Positions 50,146-64,000 of a stretch of 64,000 nt of DNA are shown piece after piece. The notes under the pieces were generated by a model. The model was given only the letters and a program-made list of their open reading frames with translations. It was not told the DNA's origin and ran no database searches. Source of the stretch: an uncultured Peptococcaceae bacterium. Its GTDB lineage: Bacteria; Bacillota; Dehalobacteriia; UBA7702. Each line of letters starts with the position of its first letter. Position 1 is the first letter of the stretch. Location of the stretch: NCBI GenBank assembly GCA_964637365.1, contig CAZWWH010000001.1, positions 64,406-128,405 on the forward strand, given 5' to 3'. Made by a program: the position numbers and the translations under genes.

Positions 50146-52617
50146 TCAGGGTTTTACTACAATGTTGACGAGTTTATTGGGAATGGGAATCACTTTCATC
50201 ACATTCTGGCCTTCGGTCAATTTGGCAAAGGCTTTGGTTCCTTTGACATGTGCTTCCAGGGCGCCTTTATCAAGACCGGCGGGAACCACCAATTTTTCCT
50301 TTACTTTGCCGTTGACCTGGATGACGATTTCCACTTCATCGACGGCCAAAGCGGTTTCATCAAACCTCGGCCAGGATAAATCCATAATAGATTCCTTGTG
50401 GCCCATCATTTCCCACATTTCTTCGGTGATGTGGGGAGCGAAAGGAGAAAGCAAGAGAATCAAGGTTTCCAACCCTTCCTTGAGCAAGCCTTCGTTGACG
50501 GCTTTGCTTTCGGCATAGCCCACTAAGCCATTGGTCAGTTCCATAATGGCACTGATGGCAGTGTTGAAATTGAAACGCTGGCTGATATCGTCAGTAACTT
50601 TCTTCATGACCGTATGAATCAAACGGCGAATATCCTTATCCTCTTTGGAAAGAGCTGCAATATCGTAACCGTCTTTTAATTCCAGGTGGGAGGTGACGAT
50701 GCGCCATACGCGGTTTAGGAAACGGTAGCAGCCTTCTACAGCAGAGTCATTCCATTCCAAATCCTTTTCCGGAGGCGCCGCAAAGAGAATGAACAGACGG
50801 GCAGTATCAGCGCCGTATTTATCAATAATGGCTTCGGGGCTGACAACATTCCCCAAGGATTTGGACATTTTAGTGCCATCCTTCAGCACCATACCCTGAG
50901 TCAAAAGATTTTCAAAGGGTTCCTTGGCCTTGCTGAGTCCCAAATCATAGAAGACCTTCATAAAGAAGCGGGCATACATCAAATGAAGGATGGCGTGTTC
51001 CACACCGCCGATGTATTGGTCAACGTTCATCCAATAGTCACTGATCTCTTTATCAAAGGCTTTTTCCGCATTTTTTGGGTCGGTATAACGGAGGTAATAC
51101 CATGAGGAGCACACAAAGGTATCCATAGTATCTACTTCTCTGGTGGCATGGCCGCCACAGCAGGGGCAAGTGGTATCCATAAAGCTCTTGCTGGTCTTTA
51201 ATGGAGAATCGCCGCCAGGATTAAATTCCACGTCGGTAGGCAGGAGCACAGGCAGCTGATCTTCGGGAACCGGCACTGTGCCGCATTTTTCACAATAGAC
51301 CATAGGGATGGGAGCACCCCAGTAACGCTGACGGGAAATCAGCCAGTCACGAAGGCGGTAATTTACCACTCTGCGGCCAAGGCCTTTTTCTTCCAAATAA
51401 TCGGCGATTTTTTCAATGGCCTCTTTATTTTTTAAACCGTTGAAAGGACCGGAATTGGTTAAATACCCTTCTTCCACATAGGCTTCGGTCATGTCGGCGG
51501 CTTTCAAATTCGGGTTATCCGGCGGCAGAATGACTTCCTTGATACCAAGACCGTATTTTTTAGCGAAATCAAAGTCGCGCTGGTCATGGCTGGGGACACC
51601 CATAACGGCGCCGGTGCCATAATCCATAATGACATAGTTGGTAATCCAAATGGGAACACGTTCCCCGTTCAAAGGATTAATCACATAACGGCCAATGAAC
51701 ATCCCCTCTTTTTCCAAATCCGTAGAGGTTCGGTCCACTGTCGAGAGTTTGTGCATTTTTCTCTGAAAAGCTTTGACATCTTCCTCGTACTCGGAGCCTG
51801 CCACCAGCACGTCCACTAAAGGATGCTCCGGCGCGAAAACCATGTAACTCACGCCGTAAACAGTGTCAGGGCGGGTAGTGAATACGGAAAGTTTTTCGTC
51901 ATGGCCTTCGATGTCGAAATCAATTTCCACACCGGTACTTCGTCCAATCCAGTTTTCCTGCATGGTTTTAACCTTGTTGGGCCAACCGGGGAGCAATTCC
52001 AAATCATCCAGCAATCGTTGGGCGTAATCGGTAATTTTAAAGAACCACTGCTCCAGGTTTTTCTTCTCCACAGTGGCGCCGCAGCGTTCACAGGCGCCGT
52101 CAACCACCTGCTCGTTGGCGAGAACGGTGGCACAGGAGGGGCACCAGTTCACAGCGGCCTTTTTCTTATAGGCCAAGCCGTTTTTGTAGAGCTGGAGGAA
52201 AATCCATTGGGTAAATTTATAGTAATCGGGCAGGCAGGTTGCGACTTCTCTGTCCCAATCATAGCTGATCCCCAGGGATTTCAACTGAGTGCGCATATTG
52301 TCCATATTTTTCAAGGTCCAGTCCACGGGATGAACCTTATGCTTGATGGCGGCGTTTTCCGCAGGCAGGCCGAAGGAATCCCAGCCCATAGGATGAAGCA
52401 CGTTATATCCCTGCATTCGTTTGAATCGTGCCACGACATCGCCGATGGAATAATTCCGTACATGTCCCATATGAAGATTCCCCGAGGGATAAGGAAACAT
52501 TTCTAAAAGATAATATTTTTCTTTGGTGATATCATCAGATACCTTAAAGGTTTTTTCTTCTTCCCAGTGCTTTTGCCATTTTTCTTCAATGGCCTGGGCA
52601 TCATATTTCACTTCCAT
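50146..52617 (-). CDS. leuS: Leucine--tRNA ligase
   Basis: HMGH (LHMGHVRNY) and KMSKS motifs, 823 aa. Confidence 0.97.
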
Positions 52618-52644: not shown

Positions 52645-52873
52645 TGCGCAATCGGCATAAAAAAAGCCGTCCCCAATGGGACGGACTGTTCCGCGTTACC
52701 ACCCAAATTGACCTTACGGCCCACTTGTAAGAGGATAACGGCCCAAACCGCCGCAGTTTCCCGCAGAGGACTCCAAGACGAGTTCAGCCTGGCCATCGTA
52801 CCTCGCAGCTACCGGCACGTCTCTGAATATGGGACAAGGCTTACTACTTCTCTTCATTGTCCGAAACAATATT
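52645..52873 (-). promoter_or_regulatory. T-box riboswitch leader of leuS
   Basis: Minus strand carries the conserved T-box AATTTGGGTGGTAACGCGG followed by terminator hairpin ccgtcccattggggacgg plus T-run; a Stem-I-like hairpin lies near the 5' end. Confidence 0.75.
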
Positions 52874-57314: not shown

Positions 57315-58184
57315 TCATGACGAACGGTTACTCCTGCGAAATTGCCCCGGAGTTGTCCCCTCGTGCTCCTTAAAAATTTTATTAAAATAGCTTTGGTCGG
57401 TAAATCCCACCTGATTAGCAATTTCAGCAATGCTCAGGTCGGAAAATATCAAAAGCTCTTTGGCTTTTTCAATGCGAATGCCGTTGAGATAAGAACGAAA
57501 ATTGCAATTCATCTTCTTATTAAAAATGCGACTCAGATGGGACGGATTCACATAAGCATATTTGGCTGCGTCACTAAGAGTGATATTTTCCGCATAGTTC
57601 GATGCGATAAAATCTAGAATGGAATTTACTAGATTATTACTAATCTTATGATCACTGGCCTCTATTTTTTCTCCGATTGGTACCCCATCATTACTGCAGT
57701 TGGCTACGAGCATGGCCATGGTTTCGGAAAGAGCTACCAAATAGTTAATGTCTCCCGAGGGATATTGCTGTAGATTGTCCCTTAAAACAGTGATATCTTC
57801 CTGGGAAAGGTTCCAGAGGGGCAATACCCTTTTTTCTAGATATTCGTCAGGTTCCATAGTAAGTACCGGACCTGCCTGAAGCGCAGCAATTAATTCTTTC
57901 CCTTGAAATACCGGAATTATAATATTAGAGAGACCAAAGGGACATCTATAAATAATTTGACGGTTCACATTCGTAGAAATGTCGCAACGTTTATAAATAT
58001 GGTCGTAACTGATATCAATCCCCACGCACTCGGCAACCTTCTGACAAAAGCAATGATCCAGATGACATTTCGGTACTTCAATCAATTTTCGATTTGGCAC
58101 ATCAATGACCAAACTATAAGAATTTGTAGTAGCATAAAGCAATTTACCAGCATGGCAAAGATTGGCTAACACTTTATCCGTCAT
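57315..58184 (-). CDS. AraC-family transcriptional regulator with an N-terminal PocR-like sensor domain
   Basis: C-terminal double HTH AraC signature (..LSDAAKYAYVNPSHLSRIFNKK.., ..IAEIANQVGFTDQSYFNKIFKE..); N-terminal ~170 aa Cys/His-rich sensory domain; start MTDKVLANL preceded by AAAGGAGAG. Confidence 0.8.
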   Translation of the reverse strand: MTDKVLANLCHAGKLLYATTNSYSLVIDVPNRKLIEVPKCHLDHCFCQKVAECVGIDISYDHIYKRCDISTNVNRQIIYRCPFGLSNIIIPVFQGKELIAALQAGPVLTMEPDEYLEKRVLPLWNLSQEDITVLRDNLQQYPSGDINYLVALSETMAMLVANCSNDGVPIGEKIEASDHKISNNLVNSILDFIASNYAENITLSDAAKYAYVNPSHLSRIFNKKMNCNFRSYLNGIRIEKAKELLIFSDLSIAEIANQVGFTDQSYFNKIFKEHEGTTPGQFRRSNRSS

Positions 58185-58665
58185 ATGGGCTCTCCTTTCA
58201 GTGTCCATAACCATTGTATCTTCATAGCGATAGAGGGCTTATTTCAATGTTTAAAATTTTTACATTACGATCATAAACTATATGCAATACCACAAAATGC
58301 CTTTTTGTATCTTTCATTGAAATTATACATTAAAACATGTTAACTTTACAACACAATATTACTATTTAACTGCTAATATGCAAATTATTTCCTAAAACGT
58401 CAATTAATTACAAAATATTCAATCGGTTGGATAATAAAATCACTCCACTATGGATTTTTCAATATGATAGCAATATTTTTCACATTTTAAATGTAATTTA
58501 TTTCCAAGTTTCAATCAATTAAATACTATAAAATCTTGTGAAAACAGTGTAAATTTAACTCAACAAAGATACTTAACCAAATTCCTAGCGATATGGAAAA
58601 CAAGAATTTGGAAAGGAGGTGTAAAACTCCAAGCATCTCAATCTAAAAATAAGGAGGAAAAAATA

Positions 58666-60306
58666 ATGAGTATGGTAGACAAAAGAGAGGCAGCTACAAA
58701 AAGCAAAGTAGTACTGATCGTATCAATGATCATTGCCATTGTCTTTGTTGCTCTTGGTGCAATCTTCCCTGAAGGAACTGCCAAGGTCATCAACATTCTT
58801 AATGCGTTCTTAACCGGAGAACTAGGTTGGATGTATCTTTTGTTTATGGCGTTCTTTGTGTTCTTCACCTTTGGCCTTGCATTTTCCAAATACGGAAAAA
58901 TCAAATTAGGGAAAGATGACGACAAACCTGATTTTAGTAATTTCCAATGGTTCGCCCTTTTGTTTGGCGGCGGTATCGGTATCGGCCTTGTGTTCTGGGC
59001 CATTGCAGAACCAATGCAACATCTGGCTACCGGTCCCATGGACGATCCACTTACCGTGGAAGCGATGCGTACCGCAATCCGCATCACCTTCGCTCATGAA
59101 GGGGTTCACTGCTGGGCCACCTTTGCTCTGGTAGGGACCTGCCTAGCTTACCATGTATATCGGAAAGATAGACCATTCCTCATGAGTTCCGCTTTTTATC
59201 CCCTGTTCGGCGAAAAAGTTTATGGTCCTGTGGGTTACGTCGTGGACATTCTGGCAACTTTTGCCACCTTGTTCGGCATCGTTACCAGCTTGGGCTTGGG
59301 GGCAATGCAGATCGTTGGCGGTCTCGGTTATATGTACGGCTTTAACACGAGCAATGTAACTGTCGCAATCGTAATTGCCGTTATTACCGTGGCCTTTACC
59401 CTGGCGACAGCCACCGGCCTTCACGCATGGATGACTAAGGTCGTTAACTTAAAAACTTGGCTCTCAATCCTTTTCATGATATTCTTCCTCGTCTTTGGCG
59501 GATTCGTTTTTATCATGCGAAACATGAGCGATGCCATCGGTGTTTATCTTAATGATTTCTTCACCCAGACCTTCTGGTACGGCGACCCTGAATGGCTCAG
59601 TGCCTGGACTGTATTCTACTGGGCATGGTGGATTTCCTGGGCAACCTTCTGCGGCACCTTTTTTGCCAGAGTATCCAAAGGCCGTACCGTAAGACAGATG
59701 CTCCTGGGCAGCACCTTCCTGCCTGCCGGCTTCTCCTTTATCTGGATTACCATCTATGCCGGCGCAGCCTTCAACCTTGACCTTACGGTTTTAGGAAATG
59801 GTGCTGTTCAAACCGGCCCCATCTTTGAAGCAGCCAACGCAAACTATGCCACGGCAATGTTCGCTACCTTAGAACAGCTTCCTCTCTATAAAATCATGGG
59901 TCCATTGGCTCTGCTTCTCGTATTCCTCTGCTTCCTCGGTGCTGCGGACTCCGCCACCTTCGTATTGCCGATGCTTACCATGGGCGGCAGTCAGAACCCA
60001 CCGAAGAAAGCAAGAATTTTCTGGGGCGCTGCCCAAGGTGCGGTTGCCATCGTTTTGGTACTCGCGGCGGGCGAAGCGACGCTGAAAGCACTGCAAACAG
60101 CATCGGTCATGGCGGCTTTCCCCTTCATGTTCGTACTGGCGCTCATGTGCATCGCCATTGTTCGGGCCTTCAAAGGTGAATTTGATTCTTCCATTGGAGA
60201 CATCCCAATGTTCGATAAAGCAGCAAGGGCAGCCGCAAAAGCGCGCAAAGAGGAATTGAAAGCCGCCGCCCAAAAAGCCGCTGAAGAAGAGGCGGCAGCA
60301 GAATAA
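58666..60306 (+). CDS. BCCT-family transporter (betaine/carnitine/choline type)
   Basis: 12-TM BCCT family with Trp-rich signature segments (WTVFYWAWWISWATFCG); strong RBS AAGGAGGAAAAAATAATG. Confidence 0.9.
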   Translation: MSMVDKREAATKSKVVLIVSMIIAIVFVALGAIFPEGTAKVINILNAFLTGELGWMYLLFMAFFVFFTFGLAFSKYGKIKLGKDDDKPDFSNFQWFALLFGGGIGIGLVFWAIAEPMQHLATGPMDDPLTVEAMRTAIRITFAHEGVHCWATFALVGTCLAYHVYRKDRPFLMSSAFYPLFGEKVYGPVGYVVDILATFATLFGIVTSLGLGAMQIVGGLGYMYGFNTSNVTVAIVIAVITVAFTLATATGLHAWMTKVVNLKTWLSILFMIFFLVFGGFVFIMRNMSDAIGVYLNDFFTQTFWYGDPEWLSAWTVFYWAWWISWATFCGTFFARVSKGRTVRQMLLGSTFLPAGFSFIWITIYAGAAFNLDLTVLGNGAVQTGPIFEAANANYATAMFATLEQLPLYKIMGPLALLLVFLCFLGAADSATFVLPMLTMGGSQNPPKKARIFWGAAQGAVAIVLVLAAGEATLKALQTASVMAAFPFMFVLALMCIAIVRAFKGEFDSSIGDIPMFDKAARAAAKARKEELKAAAQKAAEEEAAAE

Positions 60307-60412: not shown

Positions 60413-61051
60413 ATGGCAACATTACAAGATTTATCCAAGGCTGTTATCGCTGGGAAAACCAATAAGGTAAAAAAATTGATTGATGCGCTTTTGGAAGAAA
60501 AAGTCGCTCCTTTGGACATCATCAACGTCGGTCTCATCGGTGGCATGACAGAAGTGGGGGTTCGCTTCAAAGCAAACCAAATGTTTGTTCCCGAGGTTCT
60601 CATGTCGGCTCAAGCAATGGAAGCAGGCACGGATATTGTAAAACCTCTGATGAATGCCGAAGACCTCCCGGCTTTGGGCTCTGTACTCTTGGGTACTGTC
60701 AAAGGCGACTTGCACGATATTGGGAAAAACCTCGTAGGGATGATGCTGGAAAGTGTCGGCTTCAAAGTCATCAACGCAGGCATTGATGTTTCCCCTGAAG
60801 CCTTTGTGGAAGGCGTCAAAGAGCATAAACCCGATGTGGTCGCAATGTCGGCACTTCTCACCACCACCATGCTTCACATGAAAGACACCATTGAGCTGTT
60901 AAAGGAAGAAGGCCTCAGAGATCAGGTTAAGGTCATTATCGGCGGCGCTCCCGTTTCCCAAGACTTTGCCGATGAAATCTTTGCCGACGGCTTCGGCCCC
61001 GACGCTGTTTCCGCTACGGATCTTTGCAAAAAATTGCTGGGCATTTCCTAA
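60413..61051 (+). CDS. Cobalamin-binding corrinoid protein (MtbC/MttC/MtgC-like)
   Basis: B12-binding-2 cap helix plus B12-binding Rossmann domain with DxHxxG (GDLHDIGKNLV) and ..SALLTT..GG motifs. Confidence 0.9.
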   Translation: MATLQDLSKAVIAGKTNKVKKLIDALLEEKVAPLDIINVGLIGGMTEVGVRFKANQMFVPEVLMSAQAMEAGTDIVKPLMNAEDLPALGSVLLGTVKGDLHDIGKNLVGMMLESVGFKVINAGIDVSPEAFVEGVKEHKPDVVAMSALLTTTMLHMKDTIELLKEEGLRDQVKVIIGGAPVSQDFADEIFADGFGPDAVSATDLCKKLLGIS

Positions 61052-61104: not shown

Positions 61105-62574
61105 TTGTTTACGACGAAAAGCTTATATACAAAATCTGACTTTAAAGTCAATCAAAATATCGAATGGACCATTTTGTCCGACGACCAGTGTGAAGATATT
61201 TTCTTAACCGCTCTGGAATTATTGGAACGGACCGGCGCCGACATTTTAAGCGCCAAAGCCCGGGAAATCTTTGCCCAAAATGGTTGCCTCGTCAATGGAG
61301 ACCGCGTCCGCATCCCCTCTATCAAAGTACAAAAAGCTTTAAATGAAACACCGAAACGCTTGACTCTTTGTAACCGCAATGGCCAACGGGCCATGGTTCT
61401 GGAGGCCGGCAACATTCATTACGGCCCCGGTTTTGACAATAAAAAAATCATGGATATCGAAACCGAAGAAATTCGTGATGCCAAAAAATCCGACGTTGCC
61501 GACATCGCCAAAATTTGCGACAGCATTGCCGATGTAGATTTTGTAATGAACAATGGGCTTCCCGGTGACGTTCCCGCTGCAGTGGCAGCACTCCACAGCT
61601 ATGAAGCTCTGGTTTCCAACACCACCAAACCTGTTATCCAGGAAGTGAAAACCAAAGCCCAGGCAGAAGCCGTCATGGAAATGGCCTTTGCCGTAGCGGG
61701 CAGCGCCGAAGCCTTTGCTTACGATCCCTTTACCGCTCTTCTGGTGGAAAACGAAGAAACCCTGTCCATCAATGCGGAAGCCACCGACATCGTATTGGCC
61801 GCTGCTACCAAAGGCATGCCGGTGATTTTCTCCAACCGTCTCATCACCGGTCTTACCGCTCCCATGGAAAGCGCAGGCGCAATCATCAGTGCTCTGGCCA
61901 ACTCCCTAGCCGCCATCGTATTGGCACAAATGGCAGCTCCCGGTGCTCCCGTCATTACCGGCGGATTCTTCACCATCAATGACAAAGACAATGAAACCTG
62001 CCCTTACGGTGCACCGGAAATCTCCCTGTTGGGTGCTGGTTTCAGCGCAGTGCTCCGCTATCTCAAGGTTCCCAGCTTTGGTTTCGCCGGCGGCACCGAC
62101 GCCAAGATCAGCGACGCTCAAATGGGCCTCGAATCCACATTCTCTCTGCTCCAGTCCGGTCTCTCCGGCACCAACCTGATTTACGGTGCAGGGCAAATGG
62201 AAACCGGCGAGTATGGCAGCGCTTTCCTGGTGGTCATGGCCAGTGAGGTTATGGGCATGACCCGCCGCATCATCAGCGGCGTTCCCATGGACGAAGACCG
62301 TTTGGCCCGCGGCGTTATCGACGATGTGCAGCCCGGTGGCCACTATCTCGGATCCCCTCACACCAGATATTACTTCAAGAAGGAACAATTCTGGCCCAAA
62401 TTGATGAACCGCGCCAGAATTGACGACTGGACCGCCGCAGGGGCAAAATCTTTGGGACAGCGCACCATGGAAATGACCAGAGACTTGCTGGCCATGGCAG
62501 CGCCCGAAGCATTGCCTGCCGACACTGCTGCCGCCTTGAAGGACATCATCACCAAAGCTGAAGCTGAACTGTAA
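61105..62574 (+). CDS. MttB-superfamily methyltransferase, non-pyrrolysine type (quaternary amine:corrinoid methyltransferase, MtgB-like)
   Basis: 489 aa TIM-barrel trimethylamine-methyltransferase family with no in-frame TAG; TTG start preceded by AAAGGAGAG. Confidence 0.85.
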   Translation: MFTTKSLYTKSDFKVNQNIEWTILSDDQCEDIFLTALELLERTGADILSAKAREIFAQNGCLVNGDRVRIPSIKVQKALNETPKRLTLCNRNGQRAMVLEAGNIHYGPGFDNKKIMDIETEEIRDAKKSDVADIAKICDSIADVDFVMNNGLPGDVPAAVAALHSYEALVSNTTKPVIQEVKTKAQAEAVMEMAFAVAGSAEAFAYDPFTALLVENEETLSINAEATDIVLAAATKGMPVIFSNRLITGLTAPMESAGAIISALANSLAAIVLAQMAAPGAPVITGGFFTINDKDNETCPYGAPEISLLGAGFSAVLRYLKVPSFGFAGGTDAKISDAQMGLESTFSLLQSGLSGTNLIYGAGQMETGEYGSAFLVVMASEVMGMTRRIISGVPMDEDRLARGVIDDVQPGGHYLGSPHTRYYFKKEQFWPKLMNRARIDDWTAAGAKSLGQRTMEMTRDLLAMAAPEALPADTAAALKDIITKAEAEL

Positions 62575-62589
62575 GGAGGGGTGAATCCA

Positions 62590-64000
62590 TGAGAACCAAT
62601 TATAAAGCCAACACAGGTGTGTCCATGCACGTTTTTTCCGAAGCCCAATGCCGTGAATTGGTTTTGGCCGCTGAAGAAGCCATGTGGCGCACAGGAACAG
62701 ATTTTTATGATCCCGAATCCATTGAGATTTTGAGAAAAGCCGGCTGCTGGGTTGACGGCAAAAGAGTCCGTATCCCCGCTCACATTACCGAAGCCGCGTT
62801 GAGAAGCTGCCAGAAACACGTTGTTCTCTGCAACAGCCGTACCGGCGCCAGAGAACTCTTCCTGGAAGGCGGAAACTCCTACTTCGGTTCCGGCCCCTGC
62901 ACACCCTTTACCCGCAATCCTTATACCGGAGAACGCCATCGTGCCACCCGCCAAAGCGTTGCTTGGGCCACCAAGGTTTTGGATGCACTTCCCAACATCG
63001 ACTATGCCATGAGCTTGGGGATTGTTCAGGACGTACCCCTTCTCATTTCTGACCGTCATGAATTTGAACAACAAATTTTGAATACGGAAAAACCCATCAT
63101 CACCGTTTGCGTTGACCAATGGGGACAGGATGACTGCATTAAAATGGCAGAAATCGTCGCCGGTGGCGAAGAAGAATTGAGAAGAAATCCCTTCATTTGC
63201 CTTTACGCAGAACCCATCTCCCCCGGGGTACACTGCATTGAAGCGGCGCAAAAATTAGTGACCGGCGCCAAGAAAGGTTTGCCCACCATTTATACGCCTT
63301 GCATTATGGCAGGTGGTACTGCTCCCGCCACTATGGCAGGGGTTATGGTTCAGGGCCTTTGCGAAAGCCTCAGCGGTCTCGTTTTGAGCCAATGCACCAG
63401 AGAAGGCGCTCCCTTCATTATGGGTGGTGTTTACACCATTCTTGATATGGGTTCCACCATCTTCTCTTACGGCGCTCCCGAATTAAGCCTCCTTCTCGCC
63501 GGTTTAGCTGACGTGGCTCATTACCTCAACATCCCCATGTTCGGTACCTCCGGTTGCACCGATACCTGCATCATTGATGAACAGGCCGGTGTGGAAGCGG
63601 CCCTCTCCATCGCCATGACCGACATGTCCGGCGCCAATTTGAACCACGATATTGGCTACTCCGAATACGGCACTACCTCCAACTTGGATTTGGTAGTCAT
63701 CGCTGACGAAGTTTTGGGTATGGCTCGCCGCCTCACCGCAGGCATTGAAGTCAACGAAGAAACTAAGGCCTTGTCCAAGATCGAAGCCGCAGGCCCCGGC
63801 GGTCGCTACGATGTCATTGACCGTGACGACGATTGGGACGATGACGACGACGATGAAGATTACGTACCAAAGAATCCCAGAATGGATTACAAAAACCGTT
63901 TGGTGCACCGTGGCGCCAGAGAGCTCTGGCAGAAGGCCGGCGGAAAGACCTTGACCCAGGTCGCCAACGAAAAAGTTCGCGACATCATCGAATATCATGA
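62590..64000 (+). CDS. Second MttB-superfamily methyltransferase paralog (non-Pyl), 3' end outside the window
   Basis: Frame 1 is open from ATG 62590 to the window end (470 codons) and not listed in the ORF track because it has no stop; clear MttB-family similarity; unusual Asp-rich insertion near the C-terminus. Confidence 0.8.

Follow-up and report, generated by a model that had tools for sequence, protein, structure and literature searches.

A rare acidic expansion in the predicted dimerization loop of an MttB-family methyltransferase paralog

Introduction

A 64,000-nucleotide stretch of contig CAZWWH010000001.1 from an uncultured Peptococcaceae bacterium, referred to below as the window, ends in two adjacent genes for MttB-family methyltransferases, and the second of the encoded proteins carries a run of aspartates near its C-terminus. 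The locus raises the question of whether this run is a genuine part of the enzyme, how widely it is distributed in the family, where it sits in the fold and what it may contribute. An earlier note on this DNA had proposed that the acidic run forms a docking surface, for example for the corrinoid protein, or alters the substrate pocket, and that the paralog is a specialised or regulatory variant rather than a simple duplicate. Here, we describe the insertion, its relatives and its surroundings. The best explanation, which we regard as evenly poised, is a genuine lineage-specific expansion of about 12 residues that would have an electrostatic role at the partner-facing rim of the enzyme, most likely the tuning of corrinoid capture.

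Sequence and authenticity of the acidic insertion

The gene for the second paralog (MTI-2) begins with an ATG at position 62589, one base before the start given in the earlier note, and its first 470 codons occupy 62589..64000 of the plus strand. The start codon is preceded by a GGAGG and lies 14 bp after the stop codon of the first paralog (MTI-1). No stop codon occurs through the end of the window, and about 28 C-terminal codons lie beyond it; P0001, a full-length orthologue that is 96% identical, has 498 amino acids. The translated product scores 229.2 bits against Pfam PF06253 (MTTB; gathering cut-off 25) with residues 10-468 covered, which places it in the MttB superfamily. MTI-1 belongs to the same Pfam family, and the two paralogs are mutually 34% identical in a BLASTP alignment.

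The translation of 62589-64000 reads GPGGRY-DVIDRDDDWDDDDDDED-YVPKNPRMDY at the site in question. The translated region includes IEAAGPGGRYDVIDRDDDWDDDDDDEDYVPKNPRMDYKNRLVHRG, and the flanks of DVIDRDDDWDDDDDDED are EAAGPGGRY on one side and YVPKNPRMDYKNRLVHRG on the other. The GPGGRY anchor (residues 402-407; 63792..63809, plus strand) has Arg406 in place of the histidine of MTI-1, and its Tyr407 aligns with Phe418 of MttB. It is followed by the core of the insertion (residues 408-424; 63810..63860, plus strand), in which 12 Asp and one Glu make 13 of the 17 residues acidic. A Y-V-P-K motif (residues 425-428; 63861..63872, plus strand) that resembles D429-Y430-P431-S432 of MttB closes the segment. 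The counterpart of the insertion site in MTI-1 is GGHYLGSPHT; the MTI-1 translation there is DDVQPGGHYLGSPHTRYYFKKE, or DDVQPGGHYLGSPHTRYYFKKEQFWPKLMNR in a longer excerpt, and its canonical loop is given as QPGGHYLGSPHT by the list of open reading frames and by alignments to Protein Data Bank entries. When the two paralogs are aligned by BLASTP, the extra residues of MTI-2 fall exactly at this site, in frame, and the Asp-dominated insertion described in the earlier note is borne out. With GPGGx[FY] and L[VI]xR, both conserved, as its anchors, the loop of MTI-2 has 30 residues and a net charge of -9, and that of MTI-1 has 18 residues and a net charge of +3.

A run of this kind could also be a sequencing or assembly artefact, such as a frameshifted GAC repeat. 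The region is of low complexity, and the program TRF finds a weak (GACGAT)x4.7 repeat in the insertion. However, this repeat is imperfect (77% matches), the run is written in mixed GAC and GAT codons, and the frame of the conserved downstream sequence is intact. Independent related assemblies carry the same insertion with synonymous differences and with length changes in multiples of three, and homologous insertions are found in dozens of independent assemblies across different phyla. An artefact is ruled out by these observations, and we give it a negligible likelihood.

The Asp run is old and maintained. The window gene and its counterpart in 'Ca. Cryptoclostridium obscurum' (locus L002; 97% protein identity) differ at 55% of synonymous sites, with a ratio of non-synonymous to synonymous change (pN/pS) of 0.041, and paralog 2 is under strong purifying selection. 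Across this divergence the run has been retained: the 14-codon acidic core shows three synonymous changes and a single non-synonymous one, which exchanges D for E.

Rarity across the MttB family

A HMMER scan of 1.84 billion cluster representatives returned 4850 family clusters, and the family was surveyed in a sample of 138 full-length representatives, each from a different 50%-identity cluster. The loop is 11-19 residues long in these representatives (median 18), its lowest charge is -5, and none of the 138 has a loop of 24 residues or more. The possibility that such insertions are common and unremarkable in the family, which the earlier note had allowed for, is ruled out by the absence of a comparable loop from this diverse sample.

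Close homologues present a different picture. Among the 120 closest database proteins, 58 are at least 60% identical to MTI-2, and 34 of these 58 have a lengthened acidic loop of 21-40 residues with a charge of -3 to -12. The other 24 have a 17-residue loop, ADEDHTxEHxEEN, with a median charge of -5. In the 61 relatives that follow (54-62% identical), the loop is the canonical 18-residue LxEDHTFKHFKKE, with a median charge of -1. The loop charge of the whole clade, insertion-free members included, has shifted from about 0 to about -5. Because long acidic loops are confined to the close homologues and occur in none of the 138 representatives, the insertion is specific to one narrow clade and rare in the family.

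The earlier note also gave weight to the replacement of the GGH histidine of MTI-1 by arginine. The replacement itself is real (Arg406), but it is ruled out as the loss of a key residue: the histidine is present in only 34 of the 138 representatives, MttB has Asn417 there, and the position is not among the four substrate-binding residues of MtgB (PMC13080624). The HT motif occurs in 112 of the 138, and its loss, rather than the His-to-Arg change, is the main loss in paralog 2.

Placement in the fold

Among solved structures, the nearest to paralog 2 are those of M. barkeri MttB (7xcl; E 2.5e-49) and Desulfitobacterium hafniense MtgB (9yce and 2qne). MttB belongs to the same Pfam family as paralog 2 and shares with it the TIM barrel, the dimerization loop and two anchoring helices. 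HMMER alignment to 7xcl pairs query residue 401 with MttB residue 412 and Trp447 with Trp445, and the equivalent of the C-terminal dimerization loop would span residues ~385-454 of MTI-2 (63741..63950, plus strand), with the insertion inside it. [quoted passage not shown] The contacts listed for MttB include Gly415-Pro223', Phe418-Gly254', Asp429-Lys299' and Ser432-Glu309' (Supplementary Table 1 of PMC9842639). At the rim, Cys219 and Glu225 bind the corrinoid and Arg130 of MttC, and Met249 lines the substrate pocket (PMC9842639). Pro223' and Gly254' adjoin Cys219/Glu225 and the pocket residue Met249, Gly254' being five residues past Met249. A comparable arrangement is described for MtgB, where each monomer contributes its C-terminal extension to the cavity edge of the other (PMC13080624).

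The G-x-G-G-x-[FY] and D-Y-x-P motifs around the insertion have counterparts in MttB at Gly415, Phe418 and Asp429-Tyr430-Pro431, which are dimer-partner contacts. In the alignment to 7xcl, Gly404 of MTI-2 corresponds to Gly415 and Tyr407 to Phe418, and D424-Y425-V-P427 resembles D429-Y430-P431. Since the run is thereby set between the equivalents of Phe418 and Asp429-Tyr430-Pro431, both partner contacts, it appears to lie between two positions at which the loop is fastened to the rim of the partner barrel. The loop from Phe418 to Leu436 has 17 residues in MttB, whereas its equivalent in paralog 2 has 30 and a charge of -9; in MtgB the loop is the canonical GPGGHFLTQKHT, with no insertion. Placement in a loop that contacts the corrinoid protein makes the docking surface proposed in the earlier note plausible, as judged from the alignment.

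An AlphaFold2 model of the full-length orthologue P0001 has a predicted local distance difference test score (pLDDT) of 85 and a predicted template modelling score of 0.86. Foldseek superimposes it on MttB (7xcl) with template modelling scores of 0.86-0.88 and on MtgB (9yce/2qne) with scores of 0.85-0.86. The model contains the TIM barrel, the N-terminal helical region, the C-terminal dimerization loop and the two terminal helices seen in the solved members. Across residues 401-430 the pLDDT falls to 41-55, with values below 50 at 410-427, and no helix is predicted between 402 and 443. In the AlphaFold2 model of P0011, a 17-residue-loop orthologue modelled from the same alignment, the region has a pLDDT of 68-82 and a short helix over D-H-T-D-E. 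The difference between the two models at the loop suggests that the insertion replaces the small HT helix by a disordered acidic segment.

Distribution and origin of the expansion

A scan of one genome per species yielded 53 loci, 47 of which have an MTI-2 orthologue at 63-97% identity. The lengthened acidic loop is present in 29 of the 50 orthologous genes from these loci, and loop length ranges from 17 to 36 residues in the loci and reaches 40 among database homologues. A long acidic loop together with the [YF]-x-P-K motif is found in Cryptoclostridium and in related Clostridiales and Peptococcaceae metagenome-assembled genomes, and also in Eggerthellaceae/Coriobacteriaceae, Tissierella, Acidaminobacter, Synergistaceae and one Ruminococcaceae genome. 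The 17-residue loop is found in Desulfosporosinus, Sporomusa, Dehalobacterium and 'Ca. Formimonas warabiya'. In the alignment columns of the insertion-bearing clade, Pro427 and Lys428, just past the insertion, are invariant. Two Clostridiales AnMBR metagenome-assembled genomes (L005 and L007) have the gene order MTI-2a, corrinoid protein, MTI-1, MTI-2b, with acidic insertions in both MTI-2 copies. A complete window-like locus typical of Bacillota is carried by L006, which is labelled Bacteroidaceae; this label may reflect mis-binning.

Several orthologues in Syntrophaceticus/Thermacetogenium have a distinct insertion at the same loop position, which is rich in Asp and Phe and flanked by cysteines, for example SDQSCADELLDDFDDFDDFDDEGEEQECCRNF. 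These Cys-flanked insertions (L022, L027, L032 and L037; protein P0033) are nested among orthologues with the 17-residue loop. Because the Cys-flanked form differs from the [YF]xPK form and is nested among short loops, acidic lengthening has occurred at this one site at least twice. A neighbour-joining tree does not robustly resolve a single origin of the [YF]xPK form, and its basal Tissierella group may reflect long-branch attraction. The paired cysteines at the ends of the Syntrophaceticus/Thermacetogenium insertion might staple the base of the loop or bind a metal.

Two lineages retain what looks like the imprint of the process. The insert of S. schinkii is a perfect (GATGATTTC)x3.7 tandem repeat and that of L008 is (GAY)x11.7, and these codon repeats point to codon-repeat slippage in a loop that was already acidic as the probable origin of the expansion.

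Active-site residues and enzyme identity

The residues of the pocket distinguish paralog 2 from both solved enzymes. MttB has Pyl334, whereas paralog 2 has Cys323 (TGC, 63555-63557) and no in-frame stop or UAG; Tyr364 and Met249 of MttB are replaced by His353 and Cys238. Against TIGR02369, the equivalog for the pyrrolysine-containing MttB, paralog 2 scores 332.6 bits, under the cut-off of 525, and no NCBIfam equivalog reaches its cut-off, which leaves the enzyme unnamed by that route.

MtgB of Desulfitobacterium hafniense (2QNE, 9YCE; PMC13080624) is likewise a non-pyrrolysine MTI of the MttB superfamily. Its Arg312, present in every characterised acidic quaternary-amine enzyme, pairs with the substrate carboxylate in a salt bridge, its Tyr97 and Phe356 are an aromatic pair that binds trimethylammonium through cation-pi interactions, and its His348 donates a hydrogen bond within the pocket (PMC13080624). 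Paralog 2 keeps His348 as His353, in a column occupied by His in 127 of the 138 representatives, but has Phe318 for Arg312, within a gap-free block anchored by Pro316 and Asp325. Tyr97 is replaced by Pro103 and Phe356 by Gly in the HMMER pairwise alignment, where a shift of one or two residues is possible. In MTI-1, the equivalent of Arg312 is Phe, that of His348 is Tyr, and the pyrrolysine position is Gly. Because three of the four glycine-betaine-binding residues are missing in MTI-2, and Arg312 and His348 are both replaced in MTI-1, neither paralog is an MtgB when judged by the residues singled out in the 2026 study of MtgB. An aromatic residue at the Arg312 position is found in 125 of the 138 representatives and a Cys at the pyrrolysine position in 67, and both are frequent in this large uncharacterised branch.

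Among close sequences, the Cys/Cys/His/Phe pocket pattern is kept in 118 of 122. Cys238 (63300-63302), Cys323 (63555-63557) and His353 (63645-63647) occupy the positions of Met249, Pyl334 and Tyr364, which belong to one pocket in MttB, and this triple occurs in 118 of 122 close relatives and in 8 of the 138 diverse representatives. That the three residues form a metal site in place of pyrrolysine is a speculation; Cys at that position is common in the branch (67/138).

The gene pair and its cassette

The genes of the locus are arranged in the order AraC/PocR regulator (minus strand), BCCT transporter, corrinoid protein, paralog 1 and paralog 2. The AraC-type regulator with a PocR sensory domain (57315..58214, minus strand; Pfam HTH_18, HTH_AraC and PocR) is divergent to the locus, and homologues that are 34-75% identical have the same position in L002, L003, L004, L006, L019, L021, L023, L044 and L050. 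It is followed by a BCCT-family (betaine/carnitine/choline) transporter (58666..60306, plus strand; Pfam BCCT, 528 bits) that is syntenic in related loci. The corrinoid protein (60413..61051, plus strand), with a B12-binding_2 cap and a B12-binding domain in Pfam, is the sole methyl acceptor encoded in the locus, and scores under the NCBIfam cut-offs for MtgC. An adjoining gene for a cognate B12-binding protein, which counts as a criterion for the MttB superfamily, is thus present at 60413-61051 and is kept in related loci. MTI-1 (61105..62574, plus strand; Pfam MTTB, 278 bits) has 489 amino acids and a TTG start with GGAG upstream. It retains the MttB-like IYGAG motif, including the equivalent of Tyr364. 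A match to Rfam PYLIS_3, the mttB pyrrolysine insertion sequence, lies within it at 62092-62191 (plus strand; 44.7 bits, gathering 38); the UAG of the model aligns with GGC (Gly) and the reading frame has no in-frame stop. As a functional element this match was rejected, and it is taken instead to reflect homology of the coding sequence to mttB of the pyrrolysine type. A T-box leader (97.6 bits) at 52674-52866 (minus strand), upstream of a minus-strand open reading frame ending at 52617, is unrelated to the acidic insertion.

Across the loci, MTI-1 is directly upstream of MTI-2 wherever the flank is sufficient, except in L037. The position of the corrinoid-protein gene varies: it lies before MTI-1, between MTI-1 and MTI-2, or in both places. 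Directly downstream of MTI-2, a gene for a Hydantoinase_A/MutL-like protein of 650-700 amino acids is present in 42 loci, including the closest relatives L001 and L002; the window stops inside MTI-2, and a copy would be expected immediately beyond it. The paralogs are an old syntenic pair in the cassette corrinoid protein, MTI-1, (corrinoid protein), MTI-2 and HydA/MutL-like ATPase, and not a recent duplicate, in keeping with the view of the earlier note. The HydA-like protein (L002, 11673-13769, plus strand) combines Hydant_A_N and half of Hydantoinase_A with an N-terminus weakly similar to MutL/GlmL; it corresponds to 'HydA' Ga0180325_114738 of strain DCMF and may serve the corrinoid protein as an ATP-dependent activase or chaperone. 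Outside the genus of the window, most loci have identities to the window proteins of 79-90% for MTI-2, 50-67% for MTI-1 and 66-79% for the corrinoid protein. MTI-2, whose high identity extends to Eggerthellaceae, Sporomusa and Desulfosporosinus, is far better conserved across phyla than the other proteins of its operon, which suggests that it is very strongly constrained, that the cassette has spread horizontally, or both.

The best-documented relative is the cassette of strain DCMF ('Ca. Formimonas warabiya'), in which the same order is followed by MTII and BCCT transporters. All products of Ga0180325_114734-114738 ranked with the most abundant proteins on glycine betaine, and the MTI-2 orthologue Ga0180325_114737 was higher on glycine betaine, with a log2 fold change of -10.35 versus dichloromethane-grown cells (PMC9768040). 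Its authors named both MTIs 'MtgB' and wondered whether the MTI/corrinoid pairs serve glycine betaine and dimethylglycine, respectively (PMC9768040). The function of the cassette was assigned there from proteomics, and the association with growth on glycine betaine concerns the DCMF orthologue; glycine betaine:cob(I)alamin methyl transfer by paralog 2 is a putative activity. The DCMF MTI-2 is 84% identical to paralog 2, with the same pocket residues and a loop that is likewise net acidic. The MTI-2 proteins of DCMF and Sporomusa differ from paralog 2 in having a 17-residue loop with the HT motif (GPGGKFGAEEHTQNHMEENY), and neither the poly-Asp insertion nor [YF]xPK; the Sporomusa ovata cluster is syntenic with the DCMF cassette (Fig. 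5B of PMC9768040). Together with the pN/pS of 0.04, the abundance of the DCMF orthologue on glycine betaine speaks against the suggestion in the earlier note that paralog 2 is a regulatory variant. In the literature, no biochemical characterisation of the gene pair, no assigned substrate (dimethylglycine or other) and no description of an acidic insertion was found.

Proposed role and alternative explanations

In the scheme that we favour, slippage of GAY (Asp) codons in the already acidic loop of the clade would have created the expansion, and a disordered poly-Asp segment would have taken the place of the short HT-motif helix, with the conserved [YF]-x-P-K anchor closing it. By homology to the MttB dimer and to MttB-MttC, the segment would project from one subunit onto the rim of the partner's TIM-barrel mouth, where the corrinoid docks and the substrate enters. 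There it would enhance or modulate contact with basic patches on the cognate corrinoid protein; as a second possibility, it may concentrate a cationic amine substrate at the mouth. It would take no part in the chemistry. The direction of the loop in three dimensions and its function in docking or steering are inferred from the sequence. What favours an electrostatic role is where the insertion lies, that acidic residues were gained repeatedly, that the loop has turned acidic throughout the clade, that the run has been kept under purifying selection and that the P-K anchor is invariant.

The corrinoid proteins offer some material for comparison. In those of the cassettes, the first cap helices include a stretch rich in Lys, and the corrinoid protein of the window has a net charge of -10 and is Lys-rich at residues 9-21. 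Position 15 is Asn in all 14 compared loci without an insertion and Lys in 12 of the 20 long-loop loci, mainly poly-Asp ones, a pattern that gives a weak hint of a partner for the loop.

Several points weigh against this account. The corrinoid proteins carry a net negative charge (-6 to -19), which is unfavourable to simple attraction. When charge covariation of corrinoid protein, MTI-1 and MTI-2 with insertion class was scanned, the picture was mixed, with phylogeny as a confounder and with the Cys-flanked loops of L022 and L032 misclassified. The orientation of the loop toward the corrinoid protein or the cavity is taken from sequence alignment and published text. The insertion is missing from orthologues that are 79-84% identical, one of which, from strain DCMF, is produced in abundance. 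Of all 15-residue windows in the 50 orthologues, the loop is the most variable (entropy 2.15 bits against a gene mean of 0.63 bits), it is disordered in the model, and it was made by slippage, with some repeats very recent. Hypervariability, disorder, slippage and insertion-free orthologues fit a tolerated, largely neutral expansion equally well. In such a case, an exposed GAY/GAR stretch would have been lengthened by slippage and its extra acidic residues tolerated without a specific function. This is a serious rival, although we consider it somewhat unlikely. It is favoured further by the perfect or near-perfect codon repeats in some lineages, by the wide range of loop lengths with little conservation inside the run, and by the mixed covariation of charge. 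It is less easily squared with the retention of the Asp run at 55% synonymous divergence with one D-to-E change in 14 codons, with the acidic nature of all expansions in at least two unrelated sequence forms, with the shift of loop charge from about 0 to about -5 even where the insertion is absent, and with the invariant Pro-Lys after the run; the site is, moreover, a known protein-protein interface.

The remaining alternatives accept a function and assign it elsewhere. The acidic loop could overhang the mouth of the partner barrel as a funnel or lid that draws in a purely cationic substrate, a methylamine or quaternary amine, or controls its entry, altering substrate preference rather than docking. 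The contribution of the MtgB C-terminal extension to the neighbouring cavity edge agrees with this, as do the equivalence of the residue before the insertion to Phe418 of MttB, whose contact Gly254' is five residues past the pocket residue Met249, the replacement of the carboxylate-binding Arg312 of MtgB by Phe318 and the BCCT transporter encoded in the locus. However, an aromatic residue at the Arg312 position is usual in the branch (125/138) irrespective of the acidity of the loop, a disordered loop is ill suited to conferring specificity, and insertion-free orthologues have the same pocket (118/122), so that substrate choice is unlikely to depend on the insertion. We regard a funnel or lid as unlikely. 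Still less probable, and in our view very unlikely, is an adaptor in an MTI-1/MTI-2 heterodimer, in which the acidic loop of MTI-2 would build the docking site of the shared corrinoid protein on the active site of MTI-1. Such a pairing would suit genes that are adjacent in essentially all loci with enough flank (in the window 14 bp apart, MTI-2 with its own ribosome-binding site), the single corrinoid protein for two MTIs in the window, the holding of the corrinoid protein by the partner subunit's loop in MttB, and the much greater abundance of both DCMF orthologues on glycine betaine than on dichloromethane. Solved family members are, however, homo-oligomers, and the presence of a separate corrinoid gene before each MTI in L011-L013 and of two MTI-2 per MTI-1 in two loci fits independent enzymes. 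A broader proposal, also unlikely, is that MTI-1 and MTI-2 make up one machine, either as a heterodimer or as a sequential pair that demethylates a single imported amine step by step (e.g., quaternary to tertiary to secondary amine), with a single shared corrinoid protein captured or handed over by the acidic loop of MTI-2. MTI-2 would then be the missing pyrrolysine-free, corrinoid-dependent enzyme that takes methyl groups from a non-quaternary N-methyl compound, for example dimethylglycine, and the Cys at the pyrrolysine position would take part in activation chemistry.

Significance

The MttB-superfamily enzymes decide between the removal of methyl groups from choline-, carnitine- and betaine-type compounds and the release of trimethylamine in gut and sediment anaerobes, and most of the several thousand clusters of the family have no known substrate. 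The locus described here adds a very highly conserved MTI pair that is widespread in Bacillota, Eggerthellaceae and Synergistaceae. Close orthologues do without the insertion, which is therefore a modulating feature and implies no new mechanism. It is a rare acidic expansion of the corrinoid-docking dimerization loop in a known enzyme family, a modest variant rather than a new kind of system. Lying in the counterpart of the loop that, in the only solved enzyme-carrier complex, determines which corrinoid protein is bound, this rare expansion provides a testable handle on partner specificity.

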